A DNA stretch of 35,130 bases, from positions 1 through 35,130 of the forward strand of contig RBZT01000154.1 in the NCBI GenBank assembly GCA_003693705.1. The letters run 5' to 3'. A program made the position numbers and the translations under genes. Source of the DNA: Polymyxa betae A26-41 (Eukaryota > Protista > Endomyxa: Phytomyxea). The notes below the pieces were generated by a model, which worked only from the letters and a program-made list of their open reading frames with translations, was not told the DNA's origin and searched no databases. Below, in pieces: positions 9,815-35,130 of the stretch (the first letter of the stretch is position 1; every line of letters begins with the position of its first letter).

Positions 9815-11076
9815 AATCAAACACGGGACAAGTTTTCTCAGTTTCCGCTAGGTTACAGCACCACGATCGATACACCTCTCTGGAAAACAGAATATGGACG
9901 TTTGGGGAAACAAAGATTGGAGGATTACAGCAAGGACATCGACGAACTGCCGACAGAGCCAAAAGTTTTTGATCCGAAAGATTTGCAGTTAGGTTAAGGG
10001 CTAGGTGTTACGACGGATTGCTTGACAAATTTGATCAGGTCGTTTGCATGAAGACATGTATCTCAGGTATCGACGAGTATCGCCGCTGCGTAGTAACCTT
10101 GAATTCCAGCCTTGAGAAACCTTAGTCCGACAGAAGACTGGCGACGGAACCAATCCTGTTTTTTCATGAGCACCACGTGCACGAGAAGTTAATTGATCAC
10201 TTAAGAAGCAACGGTTTCCACGAAATTCTTCTAAGCGCGCTACAAGGTAAGTTGGCTTTTCGTTTGAGGTAATTCGAAATCATAATTATGCAATAAAGCT
10301 TTGGGATTTACTTCAAATTTATTATGGTGTACAGCTGTTGTTGATGTAGTTTGTGCAGGCAATATCGCCAGTCTCACAAAAATGATGCACAAAGGGAAGC
10401 TTTTTAGGTCAAAAGATTACGAACTTAAACGAGCTTTAAAGAGTAGTAACCACATGATGCAAATCAAGATAGAATCATCATGTTCTTCTAAGCATTCCAA
10501 CTGGTTTGCTTCGGGAAACTGGTTCACCATGCTGACCATCAAAGACGACATGGAGCCCTTGGTAATGGTGTTTGTGGATTGGTATAAGTCGCCGGAGTGC
10601 CCAAAGGTCGGCCATGGAACCGATAACGAGACAGGTTTGCCCGTTATTGAACCCATGTCCAGAGCTGAAAACATTAAATGGTCCAGATGGGTGGGGTCAG
10701 TGACAACATCGAGCCAGTCAACATCATGCTCGGCAAGCTCCCTGAAACAAGATGCAATTTCGCCATTAGGATGGGACATAGAGAAGAGCTAGAATAAAAC
10801 GAGATTACAACTTTGAGTTTATTACAATAGAACGAAGCAGCGAGAAAAAAAGAAAATTTTCCATGTAAAAACAGCAGCAGTAATAAAACAGAATCAGGCC
10901 GCCTCAGGTGCCTCAGCACTAAACAGAAGAGCGGAACCAGGCCGAGCCAGCCCAACAGTTTCAGCACAAAGAGCAACAACTCGGGCAAGTTCAGATCAGA
11001 CAGCAGCGACCCATGCAAAGTGAACAGCAGCAACGACCAGTGGAAGCAAGCAATAGATTTAGAAAATATCAATGCA

Positions 11077-13500
11077 ATAATAAACTGAGGAGAAAAAATT
11101 TCAAAAATGGGCAGCATCCACCCAGGCCGATAATAGTTTGCAAGCTTACCTTCGATTTGAATACTATATCGCTACGAAAACGCGAACCGCAACACCCTAA
11201 ACACGAGAACAATCAGTAGAAGATGGAGAAGCTATAGAACAAACGATGAGCAATGTTAGATAGGCCCAGATGGTACTGCAAGCACAAAGGAGAAATCATG
11301 GGCCGCATCAGCGACGAGACCCATTAAAATAGAAAGATAATTTCATTTTTAAAAGCAACCAACTGATTTAAAAGTTGCAGAAAACTTTAAAACCCTTAAT
11401 AAACTGAGAACAGAAAATTTCAAAAATGGGCAGCATCCACCCTAGTAGATAAAAAAGCATAGACATTACCATTAGTTCGATGCCATTCCATGCACGAAAA
11501 CTCGGGCCGCCTTGGTCTATACACGAGGATCATCAATACAAGGTGGGCGAACTTTAAAATAAAGAAACAGCCATGTTAGATGAGCCCAGAAGGCCCTGCA
11601 AGCGGAAAGCAGAAATCGTGCGCGCAATCAATGACGAAAACCTTCGATAAAGACAGCAAAGAACTGATTTAAAAGTTGAAGAAAACGATTATGAACATTA
11701 ATAAATTAAGAATAGAGAAAATTTCAAAATTGGGCAGCATCCACCCTAAATATAAAAATATTTAGAGAGTACTTTTGATTCGACACCATCACCGGCACGA
11801 AAACTCGGGACGCCCCGATCTATACACAAGAATAGTCAGAACAAAGCATACAAACTTTAGCATAAACAAACAGCAATGTTAGTTGATCCAAGAAGGCCCT
11901 GCAAGCGAAAAGCAGAAATCGTGCGTCTCATCAGTCACGAAAACCTGCGATAAAGTCAACAAACAACTGATTTAACAGTTGAAGAAGACGATTATGAACA
12001 TTAATAAACTAAGAGGAGAGAAAATTCTAAAATTGGGCCGCATCCACCCTAAAATATAAAAACATTTAGAGAGTACTTTTGATTCGACACCATCACGGCA
12101 AGAAAACTCGGGACGCCCCGATCTATACACAAGAATAGTCAGAGCAAAGCATACAAACTATAGCATAAACAAACAGCAATGTTAGATGATCCAAGAAGGC
12201 CCTGCAAGCGAAAAGCAGAAATCGTGCGTCCCATCAGTGACGAAAACCTTTGAAATAGAAAGACAAAAGCATATGTAAAAGCAACCAACTGAATTAAAAG
12301 TTGCAGAACGCGTTTATAAACATTCATAAACTGATCAGAGAGAAATTTTAAAATTGGGCAGCATCCACCCTAAAATACAAAAAAATTTAGAAAGTACCTT
12401 TGATTCGATGCCATTACCGCCACGAAAACTCTAGCCGCCTCGAGCTATACATGGGAACAATCAGCACAAGGTATGCGAACTTTAAAATAAACAAACAGCA
12501 ATGTTAGATGAGCCCAGAAAGCCCTGCAAGCGAAAAGGAGAAACGAACGCCCGATCAGTGACGAGCCCAGTAAAATAGAAAGACTAAAGCATTTGTTAAA
12601 GCAGCCAGCAGATTAACAAGTTGAAGAAAACGTTTTTAAACCTTAATAACCTAAGAAGAAAGAAAATTTCAAAATTGGGCAGCGTCCACCCTAAAATATA
12701 AAAAAAATTAGAGAGTACTTTTGATTCGACACCATCACCGCCACGAAAACTCGGAACGCCCAAATCTATACACTAGAGTAGTCCGCACAAAGTATACAAT
12801 TTTTAGCATAAACAAACTGCAATGCTAGATGGGCTCAGAAGGCCCTGCAAGCGAAAAGAAGAAATCGTGCGTCCCATCGGTGACGAAAAACTTTGAAATA
12901 GAAAGACAAAAGCATAAGTAAAATCAACCTACTGATTTTAGTGTTGAAAACTCTAAAAAAATTAATAAACTGAAAAAAGAAAAAAAATTTCAATATTGGG
13001 CAGCATCCACCCTAGAAGATAAAAACATTAAGAGAGTACCTTTGAAACGATGCAATCACCGCCACGAAAACTCGGGACGCCGCGAACTATAGACGAAAAC
13101 AATCATCACAGGCATCAAAAACTATAGGGTGAACAAAAAAGCATTGCTAATCTGGCCCCCGAAGGCCCTCAAGCGGAAATGTGAAATCAAATGCGTCCAC
13201 CTGTGACAAGACAGGAAGATAATGAACAGAAAAAGCATTTCAAAAGCAGCCAACTGCTTTTATAAATATAGAAAACCTAAACTTTAAAGACGCTAATAAA
13301 CTGAGAAGAGAGAAAAATTTCAGTAAGGGTCAGCATCCACCCTAGCCGATAGTGCAAAAACGTACCGACTCGAAGCCAAAATCGCCAGCAAGAACCCAGA
13401 CCGCCCCGACCTATACACGAGAACAATCAGTCCAAGACGTATAGGCTCATGAAAGAAAAAGCAGCAATGCCAGACAGACCTGAAGGGGCCACTCAGCCAA
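11077..13500 (+). repeat. Tandem array of 8 diverged ~300-330-bp units inside the CACTA element
   Basis: The anchor gggcagcatccacc (or a near match) occurs at ~11109, 11428, 11732, 12035, 12356, 12677, 12998 and 13327, with spacings 319, 304, 303, 321, 321, 321 and 329. Confidence 0.95.
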
Positions 13501-16174: not shown

Positions 16175-16720
16175 TCATAAATTCAAAATGCCCTTAATCC
16201 TAGCTGGTAGATTCTCTTTGCTGATGAATCCCAGTTGAAAAGCAATGTTAAGATGCTCAATGTCAGACCGGCTAGTTATTGCTTTTGTTGCCGTCTTAAA
16301 GTCGTCTGCGATTTCTTTCACGGAGCCAACCTGCTGCAACAACGACGTTTTGCTAATTTTTGGCTCATTGAACTTAGAGGCTGGCTCAAGTGGAATATAT
16401 GCGCATGCGCAATTCACCGTAATTTTCGATTCCAACAATCAGATTGCGAGTCCCGCATTTTCCGCAGCAATTTCTCTATCTATCGTCTGAGGGGACCCCT
16501 TTATCAAGCGAAGCCATTGTTGGGATTGTCGGCAGTCTTAGTGCTGTAATGAATGGCATTTCTCATTTGAGTTCGGGGCTGCCCAAATGGTAACTGAGGT
16601 CGCTTCGATGTGATGGTCGGGCCTATCGAGCACCAATTTCTCGTAGAGATTTTATCCGATTCTCATAGTTTCCGATAGCAAACTCTTCTGCAATATATGA
16701 TGAAGGTTGGTTCAAAAAAC
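16175..16720 (-). pseudogene. Convergent partner-gene remnant of the Harbinger element
   Basis: A helical-looking ORF tail (87 aa) ends 50 bp from the transposase stop. The two-gene layout is typical of PIF/Harbinger. No domain was recognised. Confidence 0.35.
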
Positions 16721-16789
16721 GGTTCCGCTGTAGCTAGGCATCTCTCCGTAGAATTGTTGATCTGATTGTACAACACTTAGATTCAATGA

Positions 16790-17710
16790 ATGATCCGATA
16801 GTTATAATGCTTCATTTTTCCGTCAAGATCGTGTTGCTGTATGTCTGCATTATCTCACACATACCGGATCAATTTACGATTCAGCGCTTGTTTTCGGAAT
16901 GCGCAAAACCTCTGCATTACGTTATATTGATCAAGTGGTTGACGTTCTGCTTCAATGTTTGGGCCCTAAATTTATCTTTCTGCCAGCACTCAGCAAGAAT
17001 GGGACGAGCTTTCAAATGGTTTCGAAAAAATCTGTGGCTTTCCTGATGCTTGTTTGGCGGTGGACGGATCTTTATTCGAGAAAGAAAAACCTGCGGATTA
17101 TGAAGGATGGTATAGTAGGAAGGGATTTCCAGCAATTAATGCCCAAATTGTCTTTAACTACAAGAACCGCATTAGAGATTATGAGATTATGCATTACGCC
17201 CTGGATCCGAAAACGACAAAGGTATTTATAAACGTTCGAAATTTGGCCAGACGATTGCAGCTATTATTCCTGCTGGTAAGGTGATCGGCGCTGATGCAGG
17301 ATACCAGCTGTTCACACATTGCATGGCACCGTATGACAATGACACCAGAGATACCCAGGAGAAATATTATATTTACCTTCATTCCACTACTCGGATCACC
17401 GTCGAAATAGCTCTTGGGCTTTTGAAAAAGCGTTTCCGCATTTTCAAAGCACCGATGAATCAGAAAGGCAACGAAGGCAATGGCCGAGCTGACTGACGAT
17501 ATGAAAAGGTGAGTGTTAAAAGTATGACATGAATTATTCGAGCCTGCCTTATTCTGCATAATATCCTTATTGACCTACGCCAATCATCCTATAATTAAAA
17601 TTGACTCCAATGATAATCTCGCAGGCAACGGAGCTGTGGCAGTTGCTTGAGAGGCAGCTAAGAAACGTCGTGACCTAATTCGAGCTTATTTGTGGGCGCA
17701 ACGAAAATGA
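16790..17710 (+). pseudogene. Harbinger (DDE_Tnp_4-like) transposase, disrupted
   Basis: FGMRKTSALRYIDQV; GFPDACLAVDGSL; WYSRKGFPAINAQ; PGSEND; GADAGY; HSTTRITVEIALGLLKKRFRI; ACLILHN. Confidence 0.9.
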
Positions 17711-17744
17711 TATAAAGTATTCTGCATGTGCTGTAGTTACACTC

Positions 17745-18419
17745 TATCTTTCTTAGAGCGAAGAAATTCGAGAAGTGCTTCCTGGACAGCTGCACCCCGC
17801 TCTAACATGGTGGCTACCCGATGGCTACCCGATCAAGGGACTCTCGAATTTTGTTTTGATCTTCCTTGACTTCTTTCATGAGCGACCGCATTTCTTCATT
17901 GGTCTTTTCCGGCACCTGGCCGGATAAGGAGGAAGCAATATTATTGAGCCCTTCTGACCCATCAATGCTATTCCATTGCCGATCGGGATGGTTTTTGCTG
18001 GTTGTACATTAGTGATCAATTGTTGACCTGAAGCTGAATGATTTTCTCACTGAACTGAGAAGCAGTCATTGCGAATTTTGATTTTTTTTAGCTGGTATCG
18101 TTTCTGTGTCAGTTGGCACAAAGTCTTCGCCTAACTCTTCCCCAAATTGGGAATCCTGATTGCTGGTGGAATCTCGCTCCTCCTGGACTATGACGACATC
18201 TGTTGCCAGTCCAAGAGAAGAACCATAGCCAGGGAATTTTAAAAAATACTGCTGGATAATATCGAAGACTTCGGGTCTTCATTGCCGGTTTTGGTCGATT
18301 CTTTTCCATCGGGCTTGTGATCGCGCCACTTTTGTTTGTGTGAATTTCTGCTGTGCCTTATCTTTGGTGATGTTTTGCCCAGTTGCTTTGGACATCGTAT
18401 CCTATTTTGTTTCAGCCAT
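17745..18419 (-). pseudogene. Probable convergent Harbinger accessory-gene remnant
   Basis: It lies between the transposase end and the terminus at 18805, and shows fragmentary minus-strand coding character. Confidence 0.3.
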
Positions 18420-18548
18420 CTAAAATGCGGTGACTATGCATACTATCTTTGAAAAATTCATAAAACTGTTTAAAACGCACTCCATCAACTGCTCGACCAT
18501 CCAATTAGACCAAGCAATTGCCTTTTCACCGTTCTCATCCTTCGATGG

Positions 18549-19368
18549 TCGACCTCTTTCCCGCTTGCTCGTCCCATCGCTAGACGGAGTGGAAGGAGCT
18601 AGGTTCGTGGGTTTGGGGCCGACTCAATCGACATGGCTGACGCCCAGAAATGGATAATTGCAGAGAATGCAGCCTCCAGTGGGCGCAACCCTGGCGCAGC
18701 CAATGGAAAATCTGCAGCCGCATTTTCCGACCGCTGCACTTTTCAACCGCATTATCCTTTATTGCGCATTTATTCCACGCATATTTTCACACGTGAACCA
18801 GCCTCTGAGACTAAATCGCTGCTGCCTCGTCAATCGGCGCTTTTCTAAATTTTTCCTGTCGAAGAGATTCTGACGGCTGTGTTTCGCTTTTAGATTCAAT
18901 GATTTTCATTCTTTTGTTAATGATGCTTCGCTGGGCGAATGTTTTAGATTCTTTCACTTTCTGAGGAAACTCGTCACTCTGAAGCACAGCTTTCTCACTG
19001 TCTTTGGCATTCGGCTTACTGATCCCTCTATAAAATGGCTATTAAAATACGCGTAAAATAGGGTTTTGCATAAAAGACCGCATTTTCCAGGGGACAAGCT
19101 GCAATAATTCCAGTCGCTTAGAGCCTGGTTTAAGTGTGAAAAAATGCGGGAAATAAATACGCAATAAAGGAGAATGCGGTTGAAAAGTGCAGCGGGCGGA
19201 AAATGCGGCAGCAGATGTTAAAGGGAGGAGCCAGAGTTGCGCCCACTAGGAGCTGCATTTTCTGCAATTCTCCATTTGTGGGCGTCAGCCATGTCGACTG
19301 AGTCGGCCCCGAAACTAGCTCCTCTCACTCCGTCAAACCATGGGACGAACAAGCACGCAAGAGGGCGA
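18549..19368. repeat. Long inverted repeat (~255-bp arms 18549-18805 and 19121-19368), two homologous Harbinger-type termini back to back
   Basis: For example, ccgctgcacttttcaaccgcatt and aatgcggttgaaaagtgcagcgg are reverse complements. The inner ends read aaccagcctc|TGA and TTA|gagcctggtt. Confidence 0.9.
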
Positions 19369-19659
19369 GAAACTAAATTGATGAAGCATTTGCTACCGGA
19401 AACTGTGACAATCTGATAGCATCTCTACGAGAAATTGATGCTCGATAGGCCCGAATATCACAATTGGAAGCGACCTCAGTTACCATTTGGGCAGCCCCGG
19501 ATCTCAAATGATCAATGGCATTTATTACAGCGTTAAAACTACCGACAATTCCAGCATAGCTTCGCTTGATAAAGACATCTCCCCAGATGATAGCCAGGGA
19601 AATTGGGGTGGAAATTGCGGGACGGGCAACCTGTTTGGTGGAATAGATAATTACAGTCG

Positions 19660-20200
19660 CCAGGAAAAACAAGCAATGCAGAATGAGATCCATTGACGCT
19701 GAACAAACCGTGGGCCCTCGTCGCGACGCCAGCCGACATAAACATCGTGAGCAGCAGATGTACATATAAGGTCAAGTGTGACGAAGACAGAAACACTACC
19801 AAATCGAAAGCCAACGCGGGGATTCTCCCAAGTCTTCGAAGTCGATTAAACCGCGACGGTTGCTCGCGTCATTACCATGAACAGCTTGAGGATATTCTTT
19901 GAACAGACGCCTCCCTGCACGTTCGACTTCATCATCTCGATGTCGTAACCGCTTTCTGAAATTCCCACTTATCGAGTCGTGATTTATGCAGCAGCGAACC
20001 GGATTTGAGTATAAAGGCACAAGCGGAGAGAAGCTGGTTTGCAGATTCCAGACCGTTGTATACGGCTTAAAGCAGTCATGCCGCGAATGGTGGATAAGGC
20101 CTAACGCCGCTCGATTACAGGCTGCATTGTTATACTCAGCCGGCATATATTGGACCTCAAAACGACAATCCTATGTGACACTCCTATCGACGGAGAATGG
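19660..20200 (+). pseudogene. Internally deleted Ty1/Copia RT-RNase H remnant
   Basis: WALV..P..INIVSSRCTYKVK; KLVCRFQTVVYGLKQSCREW; IYWTSKRQSYVTLLSTE. Confidence 0.75.
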
Positions 20201-20568
20201 GGCAGCACGAAAAAAGCCAGTATAAACTGGCAGCACGACCTAGGGGGCCAGTACAAAGGGGCAGTACGAAAAGAGCCAGTATAAAGGGGCAGTACGAAGG
20301 GGCAGTACAATGGGCCAACACGAAGGGTCAGTACAAAGGGGCAGTACGAAAAGAGCCAGTATAAAGGGGCAGTACGAAGGGCCAGTACGATGGGCCAACA
20401 CGAAGGGCCATACAAAGGGGCAGCACAAAATAAAGTTTTGTACGAAGGGGTAGTACGGTGGTCAGAATAAAGGGCCAGTACTAAAGGGCAGTACAAAGGC
20501 GCTGTACAATGGGAAAATAAGAAGGGCCAGTACAGAGGAACAGTACGAAAGGAGCCAGTATAAAGGGT
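20201..20568 (+). repeat. ~13-14-bp minisatellite (GGG[C/G]CAGTAC[G/A]AA) with an 80-bp higher-order period
   Basis: Repeated gggccagtacaaa and gggcagtacgaa; the block gtacaaaggggcagtacgaaaagagccagtataaaggggcagtacgaagg occurs at 20251 and 20331. Confidence 0.95.
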
Positions 20569-25559: not shown

Positions 25560-26400
25560 GGCTTACTAGGTCTGGCCGGTTCGGTTGATTGAACAATAAT
25601 ACAAATTATGGCATCAACAAAGCAATATGCCGACAGCATCGTTACGGAAGCTCCAATAGGGAGAATGCAGAACGCATATGTCGAATTCATCCATTCGGAT
25701 TCACTCAAACGAAAAATGCCGAAACCAATCACAACCTTTTACACCATTTAACAAAACAAACCAAGAAAGTGCAAATCACCAAAATACAAGCGTTAAAAGC
25801 TGTGACTCTTACACTACGGATCTGAACCAGTTAGCATTGTCTGCTAGTGTAAAAGATACCAACTGCAACTCGATTATAAACAGTGGTTGCTCCAAGCACA
25901 TGGACAATACTAAGATGCTGTTCGTCAACTATCGATCTGGCGGGAATTAAAACATCATGATGGGGAATGATACATCTGAATACAGCTCTGGAGTTGACGA
26001 TAAAGGCAATCCCTCATCTACTGGCCGTTTCAGAATCGAAAATCCCTTGTTAGTTCCAAACCTGAAGCCCAAGTTAATCTCAGTTGGCCAACTAACTAAA
26101 GAGGGTTAGAAGCTCTTGTTCAATGGGAGCCATTTAAATATCAATGCAAGAGATGAATGGACACCACCCAAAGGAAAACGAATAGTCAAATGCCAGCGAG
26201 ACGTTAATAATCTATACAACCTGAGCGAATCCAATAATGATATTCGAACGCCAACATCACTATTATTTAGCCAAGTTTAATCTTAGCGCACTTGCCTAAT
26301 GCATGAAAGACTTGGTCACATCTATAACCAGGACCTGAACAGTGTGTAGCAAAGGCTGAAATCACAAATCAAGAGAATATACCTAAGACCATAGGACCCG
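25560..26400 (+). pseudogene. Ty1/Copia gag-protease-preintegrase remnant, ending at the viral junction
   Basis: IINSGCSKHM (protease DSG motif), VPNLKPKLISVGQL and HERLGH. The CxxC/integrase region expected next is absent and viral sequence starts instead. Confidence 0.8.
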
Positions 26401-26526
26401 CTGTTCCACTGTTCCATGTGACGGAACGTTAGGGCCGTCCCATATATTTCACGGGGTGCGCCTTACAAAATCCATCCCCTGGCTGGAACACCCCCTTGTT
26501 CCATAACGATATCGTACCGTTCCAGT
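26401..26526 (+). promoter_or_regulatory. Iteron-rich viral origin/promoter region
   Basis: CTGTTCCA x2 (26401-26416), inverted GGAAC (26423), hairpin TGGAACA-ccccct-TGTTCCA (26484-26503), GTTCCA (26519) and TATA-like tatattt (26443). No canonical nonanucleotide was seen. Confidence 0.6.
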
Positions 26527-27585
26527 ATGTTGGAGGCCGCGCTTGACGATATCGGCATCGCTGAACCGGGTACAAACAAGGCTCGTGCGATGGTGTTTAC
26601 GCTTTTCTGTCATCAATCTCTTCCGGAGGATGTTGAGTGGTGCGATCCTGAACCGATCGTTCAGGATATCCCTCACAAATATTTGGTGTACGGACCAGAG
26701 TTCACCGAGGAGGGTCGCCTGAATTTGCAGGGATTTATTCAATTTAAAAACCCTCTATCTTTTTCTTCGGTTTTGAAAAAGTTCCGGCAGTTTACTCCGC
26801 GTTTACGGCGCGCAGTCGCTACGGCGGCGCAGAATCGTGCGTACTGCACCAAAGCGGTTGATATTTGGCCGTTCGACGAACACGGCGTGTGTCCGACTGA
26901 TGGCGGTGATGGTGAGGTGAATCGTTGGAAGTCGCCGTATGATCTGGCCTATTCCGGTTCGATTGACATTATCGATCCGCAGATTCAGATCCAGTCGATC
27001 CTTTCTCTGGAGCGGATCGAAGAGCGGTGGCAGTTTCGCCGCAAGCTTCAAGATTTGGCGATTCTGCGTAACGTTTGGATTATTGGTCCGACCCGTCACG
27101 GGAAGTCCTCAATTCCTAATCGATTCTTCCGTGAAGAGGACCGATATGCGAAGATCTGCAACAAGCATTGGTGCAACTATAAGGGTCAGACGGTAGTTTA
27201 CATGCAGGACTTGGATCGTAATTTCGGCAATTGGGCTCTACAGAAATTCAAGGAATGGACCGATTTGTACGTATTTCCGGGTGAGCGTAAATTCGGCAAC
27301 GTCCGGATTCGGCCGGCACATTTTATTTGTACATCGAATTTTTTTATTGAGAATTATTTCGCGGATCACGATCAAGAACATATCAACGCGATCGCGGCGC
27401 GTTTCACTGTTATTGATCTATTCGCGTGCTGTGGGCAAGCGGCGTTCTGTCGTTATGTGAGGCATCATCCGGAGCTCTACCCCGAAGAGTCTTGGCGTCG
27501 TTTCTATCAGGCCACTCATGGATGGTGGCTCTACGACGACCGGGACCAGGCGATCGTCAACTGCGACGATGATCACGAAATATAG
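26527..27585 (+). CDS. rep: CRESS-virus rolling-circle replication initiator (HUH endonuclease + SF3 helicase), 352 aa
   Basis: Motif I VFTLF, motif II LNLQG, motif III YCTK, Walker A GPTRHGKS, Walker B VYMQD, motif C ICTSN, Arg-finger region AIAARF. Confidence 0.95.
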   Translation: MLEAALDDIGIAEPGTNKARAMVFTLFCHQSLPEDVEWCDPEPIVQDIPHKYLVYGPEFTEEGRLNLQGFIQFKNPLSFSSVLKKFRQFTPRLRRAVATAAQNRAYCTKAVDIWPFDEHGVCPTDGGDGEVNRWKSPYDLAYSGSIDIIDPQIQIQSILSLERIEERWQFRRKLQDLAILRNVWIIGPTRHGKSSIPNRFFREEDRYAKICNKHWCNYKGQTVVYMQDLDRNFGNWALQKFKEWTDLYVFPGERKFGNVRIRPAHFICTSNFFIENYFADHDQEHINAIAARFTVIDLFACCGQAAFCRYVRHHPELYPEESWRRFYQATHGWWLYDDRDQAIVNCDDDHEI

Positions 27586-27894
27586 CGGAAGTTCGTGCCC
27601 CTGGGTCTGTCTACTCTGGCTCCCGATCTGGAGGTGCCTCGCGGTGAGCGTGTGGCGCTGCCATCGCCTGACACACAGACGACTACTCAAGCGTCCGTTC
27701 CTACTATCGTTGGTGCTGCCGAAGACCTGATGCAGTTGTCTGCGGTTGATTCGTCTCCCGTTGCCGCGTCGTCTGCGTCGCCGGATGCGTGCAATGACGA
27801 CTCGGACAGTGATTCTACCTGCGACAGTGGTATGACTTCGGAAAGCGCGCCTGATTTATTATCTGCAATGCTGGATGACAGGGACAGTGAATAA
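27586..27894 (+). pseudogene. In-frame Ser/Asp-rich continuation of Rep beyond a single TAG
   Basis: Same frame as Rep and open for 102 codons. The track ORF begins at GTG. It ends in a TAA overlapped by AATAAA (27890-27895). Confidence 0.55.
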
Positions 27895-27961
27895 AGATCT
27901 AAATTTGGCGCCATTTCGTTATGGACATGAGCTCCTCCCCATCGTTTTGTTCATTCACAAA

Positions 27962-28348
27962 ATGCGGCTCTCAACTACGTTGTCCGATTTGTTCCAGGTT
28001 GAGATCACGGACCGTGGCCATGGTGACTTCTTTATTGGACTGTACAAGAGAGCTGGTGATGGGTTCTGCCGATCCCTTGTCGCGTATCTCGATGGAAGCT
28101 CTCGATTGCGGGACGTGGATTTTGGAAGTAATTCGGATTTTGCTGAGCAAGCTGACGATGCTGTTCGATCCGCATTCCGATTCTATTCCCCATACAGTAC
28201 TCCTAAAACAGCTCAGTCGTGTACTGGAAGTGATGAGGGATCCTGTCCCGGTCCCCCCTCCCGCAGAAAGCGAAAATTAACGGGCGTGGACTCGAAGGCG
28301 GTGTACGCCCCGTCGCAGCTCAAGTTTGACGAAATAATATTTTCATAA
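27962..28348 (+). CDS. Hypothetical viral accessory protein (~128 aa; up to 157 aa from 27875)
   Basis: Open frame filling the Rep-capsid gap, with a basic PPSRRKRKL motif near the C-terminus. Confidence 0.5.
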   Translation: MRLSTTLSDLFQVEITDRGHGDFFIGLYKRAGDGFCRSLVAYLDGSSRLRDVDFGSNSDFAEQADDAVRSAFRFYSPYSTPKTAQSCTGSDEGSCPGPPSRRKRKLTGVDSKAVYAPSQLKFDEIIFS

Positions 28349-28374
28349 ACTTCCTCTCGTTTCTCATAGTCGAA

Positions 28375-29280
28375 ATGGTGCGGACTCGATCGGGTGCGGG
28401 TATCCCTGCCGCGCCTCGTCTTCCTGGCAACCCCAGGGCGTTCTATTGAAGGCCGATGGCCCCGCCTGTTCTGGCGGGTGAGCGTCCTTTTTCTGGTGAG
28501 GGTGTTCCAATTCTAGGCGGGCGGCGCCGCACTTCTATGCAGATGCCGACGGCTTCGTCGATCCTTCGCTCCGGTTCGTATGGTCATTCTGCAAAGCATC
28601 GTTCCGGTGGTGTTTACACTTTGACAATGCCTCTTTATGCTGGTCAGAAACGTGCGCGTTCTCGTCGTCTTGCTAAGCGTACTGTGCGTGCTCGCCGCGG
28701 CGGCATATATGACGTTGGTCGTTACGGCAGGCAGCCCATCCGTATCCGTGGGTACGGTGCGTACAATTGGCGCGGCGCCCTCAGTAGTGCAGGTCGTGCG
28801 ATTCAGACGGTAGGCCGGCGTGTTATTCCTGCCGGTACGTTTGCTCGCATGGGTAACGCGGTAGGCTCTACTCTGGGTTCCAGTGTTGGAGGTTGTCTTG
28901 GTGCCGCTATCGGCGGTAACCTCGGTTCCGCTCTCGGCAAGAAAATCGCATCTGTTGCGGGTTTCGGTTCCTATAACGTCAAGCGTAACTCAATAATGAA
29001 ATGGACCAATGTACGGTTGTATCGCACCGTGAGTTCGTCTGCAATATCGTAGTTCCCGCCTCGGTTACCGGGTTTAGCACGGATACGTTTCGTCTGAACT
29101 CTGGTAACATTAAAACGTTCCCTTGGCTCAGCAAGATCGCGGATGCCTACGATCAGTTCCAATTCCTTGGTTGCATATTCCAGTTTAAGAGCACATCCTG
29201 GTTGTCTAACGTTCCTCCGCCCGGTACGTTAATTATAGCGGCGGATTATCAAGTCAATGATGCCGCGTATGCCACCCAAG
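28375..29280 (+). pseudogene. cap: Tombusvirus-like (crucivirus) capsid protein, frameshifted at ~29000 and 3'-truncated
   Basis: Arg-rich arm KRARSRRLAKRTVRARR; RGYGAY; Gly-rich stretch; GFGSYNVKRNSI; then another frame with VSHREFVCNI..FRLNSGNIKTFPWLSKIADAYDQFQFLGCIFQFKSTS..GTLIIAADY. Possible starts are 28375, 28456 or 28627. Confidence 0.9.
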
Positions 29281-29749
29281 GAAGGTCCCGCCTGCAATTG
29301 TTACAGTCGCGGGGGACCCAGTAACAATAACAGATGCGAGACAGAACTGCTTGGTTTGGGTACCCGCATCCAGTAGAGGATGGTCTACGGATCAGAATTT
29401 TGACCCAATCATGCTTTTACCCTACCTTGCAAATCCTCAGTCAGAGATTTGTCGAAACAGTTTCTGGACAGAAACTGGATCAGCTCGTCCCCTTGTTTTC
29501 CACGCCAAAACTGGATAGGTTTTTGACGTATCTTCTCATGGCTCCAAGGTGCTTTGAGATTTCCAGTATAGATCCTATCTGCACGGCTGAACTGCTCGAC
29601 TTTATGGAACAGGTCTTCGTGAAGTTTACCTATCTTGTTTTGAAAATATATAAAGCTCAGCTAAAAACAGAGCATACCAATCTGAAAACCATCGGTTTTG
29701 AGTACAACTGGAAAACGTTCGATATCATTTGATGATTCGGCGCCATTAC

Positions 29750-30026
29750 CATCGCCGGTATCGCCAAATGTCCAGAGTCTGGTTGAGCTCTGAGAGAATC
29801 GAGAGTGGTATTCATACTTGCATGGCAAGACTGCATGTGGCGGAGTTGTCGACCACCAGTGGAAAGCCGCCATGGACGACTCGGTCTGTGTGTGCTATAG
29901 CAACTCCGGTTCGGAGCTTGAGAAACACAGTGGTTCGTGGACATGCACGACGCGAGCCATCTTACAGTGCGACCACATGTTGTGTACACCTCCTGTCTTG
30001 GGTTGATGTCTTGACACGCGCCCTCG
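29750..30026 (-). repeat. PPT-like tract and start of the 3' LTR of the minus-strand Copia
   Basis: Minus-strand ttcgagggcgcg|TGTCAAG follows RNase H. The LTR starts at 30016 and its far end is undefined. Confidence 0.45.
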
Positions 30027-30049
30027 AACAGATTATGGTCATCGGGTTT

Positions 30050-33000
30050 GAAATATCCTTGACTCCTATTTGGTCACGACACCATTAAAATTTAGGTATC
30101 GGAGACGGTTTGGTCAATGCATCCGCTACCATCATTGCAGTTGGTATCGGAACAAACTTGACGACCTTGTTCGCGACTTGTTCGCTCGTGTAGCGGTAAT
30201 TGACATCGATGTGATTGGTGCGAGGATCGGCTCGGTTGTTCGCTGTCATCGAAATGCTTCCATGGTTATCTTCAAGATTACCGTCGGGTGCTGGTGCTCA
30301 TGGCCGAGTTCCTTCAGAAACTGTCGTAACCAGACAATCTCGCGCACCGCGTCATACGCCGCTTGGTACTCAGCTTGCACGCTGGATGTTGAGACCAATG
30401 ATGGTCGCTTCGATTTAACTGCGACTGGGCCGTTTGCGAACATAATGACATATCCGGTAACAGATCTCCTTGTGTCCGGATCATTCGCGAAGACGTTGTC
30501 CACAGGGATGAGGCTTGGTTCGGAGATGTTCTGTGAGTATTCGATGCCAAATGTTATGGCTCCCTTGAGATATCGGAGAACATGCTAAGCAGCAGTCCAG
30601 TGACGTTGACCTGAGGTCTTAACGAACTGACAAGAAACGGACACCGCAGGCAAGATGTCAGGCCGAGTGTTGATCCCAAGCCACAAGAGGGCTCCAATCA
30701 GCTCACCGTAGGGCTTGCCTTGCATCGTTGCAGTGTCAGAATCTGTTTGTGCGCACATTTCGTCAGTGAGATGGAATCCTGGCTGATGTGGCGCAGAGCT
30801 GGGAGAGCAGTCGGTCATCTTGAACCGCTCTAGGATTTCCTGAATGTACAGCGCTTGGTCAATCCGGATGGGCCCAGTCGGTGTAGAGCGGTGAATGTGC
30901 ATGCCGAGTAGACGACTTGGTTCCCCGAGGTCTTTGATCTCGAATTCGTTGCTGAGCAGCTGAACAACCAGATCACAGAGTACTGTATCGTTGTGCACCA
31001 TCAGCGAATCGTCGTCGTGGATTCCCATCATCACGAAACTTCTGCCTTCGCGTGTTATATACATGCAAGTGCCTGCACAAACGCGACGAAAGCCTGCCTT
31101 ATTGACTAGGAAGTCGTTGAACTTCTTGTTCCAAAACATGCCAGCCTGTTTGAGGCCATACAGCGCCTTGAGAAGTTCACACAATAAATGTTCCTGATCA
31201 GGTTCAACGAAGCCATCTGGCGGCTTCATGAGCACCTGTTGGTCCATTTCGCCGTTAAGAAATGCGCAGACGACATCTATATGTCGTTGATGGTACCTAT
31301 ATTGGGCGGAAAGGGCGAGCAATAGACGCCTGGACTCCTTGTGGTCTACAGGAGCAAATGTTAAAAATCAATCCCTGGTCGCTGGGAAAAGCCTTTGATG
31401 ACCAAGCGAGCCTTAAATTTGTCGATAGTGCCATCGTCCTTGGGCTTTGTCGTGAAGACCCACTGTTTGGATGGCTTTACGTCCTTGAGGTAGTTGCCGA
31501 AGCTGCAAAGTTTTGAAGTTTATGAGGGTTTGAAACTCTTCGTGCGCGGCGTCGTTCCAATATCCCCAGTACGGACTCTGAAGGGCTTCCTTAAAACTTG
31601 ATGGTTTCTTGAAGTCACAGGCTTGAACATCGTCCCGTGCAGGCGGTGGGAGTATATCAGGGAAGTGCTTGGGAGTGGCAGCACTAAGTACGGTAAACTG
31701 TATATGGGCAACTGTATCTTCGAAGGTCTCGTCGTGAAGGGACCCGTTATCAGAATTGGCTTGTGGAACTTTCCAGCAGTCACTCGTTGTTTTGCGCTCA
31801 AGTTGAGGGTACCGGTGAGATATCGTAGATGCTGGGACATGAAGAGCCTCGGTGCTGTCAGTTGAAGATGAATCATCTGTTGAATTTTGTGCTGCCTCTT
31901 GATCATCAACTTCTTCACTTTTCCCAGGCTTTCGCTGTCATCGCAGAGGTTAGCATTGAGCTTCTCGGCATTGTTCATCTCTTTTTCCGGCTGAGTGTCG
32001 TGCTCTTCTGCAAGTTGTCGTTGGCAATAGTCGCTCTTGCCTTCATTAACGCGCCAGAACGAAAATTCTGACTAGTTGAAAATGACATCGTGGCTCACGA
32101 GGCGTTGCTGTGGATCGGGATCCCAAAGATGATAGGCCTTCTGGGTTGACTCGTTGCCAACGAAGATTGCTCGTCTGGCGTGTGGCTCCTGGTTACGCCG
32201 TGTTGTCGTTGGTGTCAGTACCCATGCATCGCAGCCGAGAACTCGAAGATGTGCAAGGTCAGTTTGTCTTTGGTACATTGCCACGTAATGCAGAGTGTGG
32301 GCGCTGGTTGAGGAGGTAAACGGCAGCCACTAGGAAGAATGGCCAGAAATCTTGAGGCAGTTTCGCGCGCAAGCGGATCGGCTCTGTGATTTCAATAATG
32401 GACCGGTTGAGACGCTCAGGCAAGCCGTTGGACTCGGAGTCATAGGCCACAATTGTTCGGTGTGGATTCCATTTTCCATATAATATGTTCGACATGCCTT
32501 CGACAAGTATTCGCCAATATTATTGGTTTGAAGCTGTTCAACGCATGAGACGGAATGTTTATGCCTTCTTAGCATCTTCGCTTCAAAAATTTTGAACGCG
32601 TCGAGTTGATCGGCCTTGCTTTTCAGAAGTAACAGCTCTGTGTATCGTGTAATGTGGTCGATATATGTGACACAATATCTCCAGTTTCCATTGATGCCGG
32701 TAGCTTTGAAGGGTCCCTTTAATAGGAAAAACACATTCGCCAGGGCGTATTGTGACCGTTTTGCTGGGTTGGAAATGACGTCTGCTCATCTTTCCCAGGG
32801 TACAGGGCTCGCACGGTGTTTCAATCTCGGGTCTCGGTTTGAGCGCAATTCCGGTGTCGCTTGTGCGCTCCAATCGCAGCAAGTCGCGTTGGTTGAGATG
32901 AACCTGACGCTCGTGCCAAAGCTGTGTTGCCTCAGCGCTCTTTTGCTTGGAATAATATGTGATTGCGGGACTGCGGGAACTTGATTTCTTGGATGAAGCT

Positions 33001-34260: not shown

Positions 34261-34345
34261 CTCTTAATCGGTTGAGGCTCGAGAAACAAGAGAGATCAAT
34301 GTCTGGCCAGCAGTCTGTTGAAGTTGTGACTGTATTTATGGCCCG

Positions 34346-35130
34346 GTGGGCTCTTATAAAATAAAAACAGACATTATCAGGTTCTTTCGCAAGTATGCGT
34401 TGTATCGGCATATCATCGAAGATGTCAATGCGGAGTCCGTGGTCAGGATAACTCCGCGGACTGTCAAGTCAATGTTCGACCCGTTTTTATTATCGGCGCT
34501 TATGAAGTATGAGCGCGACTGGAAGTCCGTCGGAACGGCTTTATGTGATTCGTTCCTGCTACGATGGCTTAAGAAACAGCAGGGCAGCGACACCTCGAGC
34601 CATCATACTCTTTCCAAGATTCTGCGTGAGAATCTGAAGATGGACCTTCGGATTTCGGCCTCTGCAGCTCGTGAACAAAGATCTGCAACGCCAAGTCGAG
34701 CCGTTAACGACTGAAAACAATTGGGGCGGCCTCTTTGCAACTCCGGATGATAAGAAGAACCTCGTCAGATTCCTGATCGAGTCCGTGCAGCCCTCCAGCT
34801 TCCGAAACTTCATGAAGAATGTGGTTAAAGTGTGTCGATGCCGCACCTGCAGCAGGATACCGAGGCTTTGTTCGACACACTGAAATCCAAGACCAAGATA
34901 TTAGATGAGATGAATTTGATGGGTCAAGACAGGGAAGTCCGAAATGCGGCGACCAAGGAACCGAAGCGGAAACGTGGAGGCGATTATCGGAAGGGCAAGG
35001 ATAAGAAGGCCAAAACCGATCGGCGCGAACTCAAGTCCGTGAAGTGCGGACAAAATGAACATTTTATGTCAAAATGTCCGCAGAAGCCTTCGAAAAAGGA
35101 GCAAGAACTTCTCTTGAAGAAGCATCGCGC
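34346..35130 (+). pseudogene. Ty3/Gypsy-type gag remnant running off the window
   Basis: LRENLKMDLRI...LVRFLIESVQPSSFR, a basic linker, and a degenerate zinc knuckle VKCGQNEHFMSKCP (~35039-35080). Confidence 0.55.

Follow-up and report, generated by a model that had tools for sequence, protein, structure and literature searches.

Gene content and organization of the element

The window, meaning the whole stretch of 35,130 nucleotides analysed here from an assembly labelled Polymyxa betae A26-41, carries at positions 26401-29279 an element of about 2.9 kb that comprises a CRESS Rep, an orphan ORF and a tombusvirus-type capsid, all of them on the plus strand. The left end was placed between 26391 and 26401, and the right limit of the capsid lies at 29279, in the middle of the S domain, according to a profile of 87 related capsids. 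In the initial annotation the two genes had been described as an integrated crucivirus-like genome lying on one strand between transposon remnants of a eukaryotic chromosome. Both the pairing and the setting were confirmed, the former by Pfam, PDB and profile matches and the latter by copia sequences on the two sides. The same annotation had stressed the retention of leader, rep, accessory ORF and cap; all four parts are present, but the element is a partial and inactivated genome with a truncated capsid, and the whole genome was not retained. Both genes carry lesions: stops within the frames, a Rep motif II that has decayed, a break of the capsid frame and the capsid truncation. A working Rep or capsid product would not be expected from these frames, and the element is predicted to be inherited as a fossil.

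The CpG observed/expected ratio of the element is 1.32, versus 1.17 or less in 54 windows taken outside it. At third codon positions Rep, its tail and both capsid pieces present T at 0.32-0.45 and A at 0.08-0.13, and the copia frames present T at 0.23-0.25 and A at 0.19-0.21. The third-position bias common to Rep, tail and capsid pieces points to one origin. No host DNA was recognised between Rep and capsid. The frames of the element fit the standard genetic code; a ciliate-type code was ruled out by the 21 ordinary Gln codons and single internal TAG of Rep plus tail, and by the TGA used as capsid stop.

The leader and the Rep gene

The leader upstream of Rep (26391-26526, plus strand) contains iteron-like TGTTCCA repeats, three direct, one inverted and one partial, and a 7-bp hairpin at 26484-26503. 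It is likely part of the viral intergenic or origin region. The NANTANTAN nonamer is absent from the leader. A second hairpin, weak and AT-rich (28322-28352, -3 to -4 kcal/mol), has a loop that fits NANTANTAN on both strands, not the canonical TAGTATTAC, and is a candidate origin; a canonical stem-loop nonamer was not found in the element. Among cruciviruses a nonanucleotide stem-loop is given for 277 of 461 genomes in the available part of PMC7468197.

Rep (26527-27585, plus strand) comprises an HUH endonuclease, an SF3 helicase and a Cys/His-rich extension. Its frame is free of stops throughout 26422-27585, with the first ATG at 26527 and a product of 352 amino acids, and was matched in Pfam to Viral_Rep (E 2e-8) and RNA_helicase (E 8e-6). 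The AlphaFold model, built from a 74-row alignment with a pLDDT of 88, resembles the Reps of vientovirus and porcine circovirus (PCV2) in PDB and unclassified CRESS Reps in BFVD. Rep retains motifs I and III, Walker A, Walker B (at its second acid), the Arg finger and motif C. The exception is motif II, where the metal-binding residue, invariant in 145 of 145 aligned relatives, is gone at codon 26722-26724. The stop codon lies at 27583-27585, and 102 further codons are open in the same frame beyond it (27586-27894, plus strand), forming an acidic, low-complexity stretch that likely was once the tail of Rep. That this stop is premature is probable, since the tail carries the codon bias of Rep (third positions T 0.35 and A 0.09, versus 0.34 and 0.11 in Rep) and the alignment with the related Rep P0001 spans it.

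Together with P0001, P0006 and P0007, partners that were compared by Rep alone, this Rep forms a fully supported four-member clade with identities of 40-51%, and the closest Reps sit on contigs of 2.7-5.4 kb. The Cys/His-rich extension that follows the helicase (27420-27585) is common to the four members; it was modelled at moderate to high confidence and is possibly metal-binding. Free close relatives were absent from the viral_contigs set when queried with the window Rep, P0006, the capsid piece and the leader motif, and one metagenome scan gave as its sole match an unrelated Rep.

The accessory ORF and the capsid gene

The accessory ORF (27962-28348, plus strand) is intact and encodes 128 amino acids with a basic RRKRK stretch. 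It had no match in Pfam or in the Atlas and nothing under E 0.3 among the fetched ORFs; it is matched in part by the diverged second copy of the element described below.

The capsid is split over two frames, 28450-29052 and 28989-29324. The N-terminal part (28375-29010, plus strand) opens with the ATG at 28375, and a stop in frame at 28447-28449 interrupts it; its recognisable features are an Arg-rich arm, a Gly-rich tract, an arm motif before the S domain and a GFGSY motif. The S-domain fragment (28995-29279, plus strand) belongs to the other frame, which contains HREF and FPWLSKIA and matches Viral_coat (E 6e-7), the top PDB matches being tombusvirid coat proteins (E 0.006-0.01); a grouping with non-tombus capsids was not seen. 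The 87-capsid profile matches 28843-29010 (E 6e-10) and 28995-29279 (E 4e-28), with no other match anywhere in the window. The frame breaks near 29000, where about 10-20 codons were lost, and the S-domain fragment corresponds to profile positions 99-193 of 425, so that half of the S domain and the whole P domain are missing. A continuation of the capsid beyond 29279 was considered and rejected, the weak match to P0005 (E 0.11) being unsupported by the 87-sequence profile.

Genomic setting

The window is almost wholly transposon debris, with copia, Harbinger-like and CACTA-like elements as the only convincing families in 67 frames. Besides transposon domains, Pfam gave two weak unrelated matches in these frames. 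No host gene was recognised in the window, no tRNA or Rfam match was obtained in it, and two of its ORFs had no match in the Atlas. The closest relatives of the window copia RT are metagenome proteins. The repeats of the window have a mean CpG ratio of 0.98, without depletion. Absence of CpG depletion argues against a land plant or a vertebrate, and the composition suggests a microbial eukaryote as host; an oomycete, a phytomyxid or a zoosporic fungus may be conjectured.

Other structures in the window comprise seven to nine degenerate tandem copies of an A-rich unit of 300-330 bases (11075-13436); long inverted repeats nested in one another, 78-100% complementary, that surround remnants of Harbinger-like transposase (16416-19657); an array of a 13-base unit directly upstream of a copia pol region (20186-20567); and a gag-like ORF (34322-35130) that is frameshifted and to which neither Pfam nor the Atlas assigns a family, presumably reminiscent of the LTR-element gags of oomycetes and phytomyxids.

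The left flank of the element (25660-26390, plus strand) is a decayed Ty1/copia pol, identified by Pol_BBD (E 0.003) and by tblastx against the other copia of the window (E 4e-8). On reading its frames, a protease-like domain was found followed by the His/Cys N-terminus of the integrase; a gag_pre-integrs match (E 0.05) stayed below the cut-off. The integrase core does not resume to the right of the element. There, the flank (29280-30050) is formed by about 220 unclassified bases, with no capsid or Pfam match, and then by multi-copy DNA that leads into a minus-strand copia whose RT is at 30585-31367 (RVT_2 E 3e-42). Along this flank the summed depth climbs from 373 to 753 and 1443, the multi-copy DNA starting near 29500, and the left junction is itself within multi-copy DNA with a summed depth of about 720. 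Compared by eye, the two ends (26393-26403 and 29283-29294) share an imperfect likeness of 11-12 bases, with 8 of the first 9 letters equal, a possible microhomology.

Junctions, depth and further copies in sequencing runs

The stretch or part of it is present in nine runs from four studies, and contigs from four of these runs were compared; runs X3-X5, X8 and X9 hold small shares of it, and no RNA run is among the runs listed with the stretch. Run X1 is probably the source sample. Its element unitigs have depths of 343-380, versus 313-352 for the flank unitigs, and many of its contigs stand at about half depth, which suggests two chromosome sets or two genotypes. At trace depth the stretch was also found in runs with two other organism labels from three studies, a pattern compatible with a parasite or symbiont living with larger organisms, or with a contaminant of these.

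The element is joined to its flanks at flank depth, at the right end by contigs of X1 and X2 and at the left end by a contig of X2. The X1 contig (28010-29530, depth 373) crosses the capsid end. In X2, a run of another study under another organism label, the contigs 26363-26902 and 29109-29565 have depths of 2-3 and zero differences, and the second passes the start of the multi-copy DNA near 29500; this X2 trace could be the same material as X1. The integration proposed in the initial annotation is in this way backed by contigs across both ends, with the left one crossed by only 28-38 bases in one X2 contig of depth 2.3 among the matches listed, an overlap that is borderline against the 31-base matching rule. 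No X1 piece across the left end is among the matches listed. The motif II lesion and the Rep stop are unchanged in the difference-free contigs of X2, as is the capsid stop in a difference-free contig of run X7. Assembly errors are excluded as the source of these lesions by their recurrence in difference-free contigs of two other studies. Of the 6 joints listed, in contigs that drop rare variants, not one would close a circle or bypass the element as a whole.

An X1 contig of depth 174 matches the window in islands at 26442-26479, 26578-26616, 27837-27857 and from 27977 on, all in order, which fall in the leader, at Rep motif I, at the end of the tail and at the beginning of the orphan ORF. This contig is a diverged second copy, possibly internally deleted. 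At its loose end a hairpin is placed as the one at 26484-26503 of the window, with arms that are different and still complementary by eye. A contig of X7 matches 26391-26443 with 6 differences and then enters another flank, which may mean that a further locus ends in the same way.

Relationships of the capsid and the Rep

The capsid comparison covers 146 contigs with a capsid, of which 24 also carry Rep and 74 carry RdRP-like frames, 48 being unassigned, under automatic partner labels some of which differed between two labelling rounds. The top scores were those of L160 and L161, both RdRP-bearing, followed by the Rep-bearing L157. L160, an RNA-virus contig with RdRP, is the nearest single capsid (45% over 157 columns). 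When the 45 best capsids and that of the window were placed in a quick tree, which contains no named GenBank crucivirus, the window capsid is sister to L160 (SH-aLRT 86), beside L157, L135 and L159 (80), these three being the Rep-bearing rows of its clade. An earlier 88-row tree did not resolve its position. The clade is mixed and weakly supported, at 80-86, with an RNA virus as its member nearest to the window capsid. The capsid tree alone does not split crucivirus from RNA-virus capsids; what separates a crucivirus from an RNA-virus origin is the pairing of Rep and capsid.

L157, retrieved solely through Rep patterns, ranks first of the 96 fetched Rep ORFs as a match to the window Rep; it is also the best crucivirus-type capsid match to the window, with 37-42% identity over two pieces. 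Of the 21 Rep-plus-capsid contigs retrieved through their capsid, L159 and L135 have the two best-matching Reps. In these comparisons Rep and capsid, each on its own, lead to one set of near relatives among the free contigs with both genes. Across the full set of 25 contigs with Rep and capsid, the two similarities show no correlation (rho 0.03), as expected for a group reported to recombine often. The capsid arm contains 11 Arg in the window and 8 each in L157 and L159, versus none in the RNA virus L160 and one in L161. L159 also has the layout of the window, a unisense series of Rep, small ORFs and capsid. A tombus-type capsid is carried by 3 of the 73 viral contigs found by Rep, and no RdRP family was identified in the 76 window frames scanned. 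L157 (1-4398) is an entire Rep-plus-tombus-capsid contig within a GTDB assembly of Bradyrhizobium, where it likely represents crucivirus contamination.

Comparison with known systems

Cruciviruses were reportedly the subject of Diemer and Stedman in 2012, and Zhao et al. in 2021 are said to have surveyed CRESS fossils. The element resembles cruciviruses in combining a CRESS Rep with a tombus-type capsid that has a basic R arm, a Gly tract and an S domain (available parts of PMC7468197 and PMC5822885), in its unisense layout, given for 40% of 461 genomes, and in an accessory ORF without relatives (same part of PMC7468197). It differs from them in being linear and in chromosomal repeats, with broken genes and a truncated capsid; cruciviruses are circular ssDNA of about 2.5-8 kb, whereas this is an integrated 2.9-kb fragment. 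In the available text of PMC7468197 and PMC5822885 the described cruciviruses are free circles with an unidentified host, and in that of the former SAR organisms are proposed as hosts. A 2025 study, as far as its accessible portion states, reports cellular genomes without significant BLAST matches to cruciviruses and one rotifer protein recognised by fold (PMC11832652).

L157, L159 and L135 are the nearest Rep-bearing capsids and share the same large Rep clade, and the gene order is the same in L159; the difference is that the window Rep falls in its own clade with P0001, P0006 and P0007, which has the Cys/His-rich extension. With the tombus-type RNA viruses the element shares the capsid family, to which its nearest capsid, L160, belongs. 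It differs from the L160 and L161 type in that those viruses have an RdRP, not found in the window, and a Lys/Asn-rich arm. Oomycete RNA viruses, set beside the window by description only, are named as sister group of crucivirus capsids in the available part of PMC5822885. Integrated, host-assigning pairs of Rep and Cap are known from the CRESS elements of Entamoeba and Giardia (Naryaviridae, Nenyaviridae, Vilyaviridae; PMC7493932), and the Oomyviridae elements of oomycetes are likewise integrated ssDNA viruses with both genes (PMC12451638, PMC13499601). These are other groups, for which a tombus-type capsid is not described in the available parts of the three papers, and the Oomyviridae, compared by description only, differ further in having linear genomes (same parts of PMC12451638 and PMC13499601). 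An integrated crucivirus was not found in the literature searched, most subscription papers lying outside the search. The crucivirus group and paired CRESS fossils are both known; their combination was not found in print.

Origin of the element

The block formed by Rep, accessory ORF and capsid likely derives from one crucivirus-type ssDNA virus, and it is quite probable that such a virus integrated into a copia remnant and then decayed. Rolling-circle replication in the nucleus is the mode of CRESS viruses. The virus would have infected an ancestor of the eukaryote, replicated there by this mode and been captured into the chromosome, after a copy of its genome, linearised within the intergenic region that precedes Rep, had been joined into the copia pol just past the integrase zinc-binding motif. 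The joining may have occurred through Rep, which is thought to mediate the integration of CRESS viruses (available part of PMC7493932), or through break repair. Point lesions and a small frameshifting deletion would have followed. Because the copia does not resume at the right, a later deletion or rearrangement is likely, which would have taken the remaining capsid, the original right end and the remaining copia. The existence of the second copy suggests that capture happened more than once, or that the element was duplicated long ago.

The block could instead represent two separate adjoining fossils, a CRESS Rep fragment and a capsid cDNA of a tombus- or noda-like RNA virus copied by a retroelement. 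The highest capsid scores of the RdRP-bearing L160 and L161, the copia elements with reverse transcriptase around the site and the scarcity of tombus-type capsids among Rep-found viral contigs (3 of 73) would agree with it. It is improbable, however, in view of the common strand with no recognised host DNA between the genes, the codon and CpG bias common to Rep and capsid, the Arg-rich arm, the free Rep-plus-capsid relatives shared by both genes and the lack of an RdRP match in 76 window frames. A different question is whose DNA was sequenced: if the fossil, although real, came from a microbial eukaryote co-sequenced with the labelled organism, the label would name the wrong host. To this we assign only a small probability; the traces under two other labels, the window without a recognised host gene and the solely metagenomic relatives of the copia are in its favour, but in X1 both element and flanks stand at a word depth of about 310-380-fold with many paralogous contigs, as for the main organism.

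That the assembler merged a free contaminating crucivirus with host repeats is very improbable. Element depth equals flank depth, a second study crosses both ends, both genes are inactivated with the same lesions across studies, and no circle-closing joint is among the 6 listed. In its favour are the contamination of kits and assemblies by cruciviruses (available part of PMC7468197), L157 in its bacterial assembly being one such case, and the position of the left junction in multi-copy DNA at about 720 summed depth.

Returning to an integrated crucivirus, we lean slightly towards a broader reading, that this would be the first fossil tying a crucivirus to a specific eukaryotic host, with at least two diverged copies reflecting repeated infection and a capsid at the RNA-virus boundary, in a lineage where DNA and RNA viruses may have swapped coats. 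Cruciviruses serve as the standard case of a DNA virus that bears the capsid of an RNA virus, and their host was not demonstrated in the available parts of papers from 2016, 2020 and 2025. It was through paired Rep-plus-capsid fossils that Entamoeba and Giardia became the assigned hosts of three other CRESS families (PMC7493932, available part). In the same manner this fossil would give a candidate crucivirus host, the labelled organism of the assembly, making the host question directly testable and opening a test of the SAR-host hypothesis. The same organism would be a place to look for a live virus and for RNA viruses with a matching capsid. L160 (1-2684) and L161 (1-5098), RNA viruses with divergent RdRPs and the capsids nearest to that of the window, are candidate RNA-virus partners in the capsid exchange.
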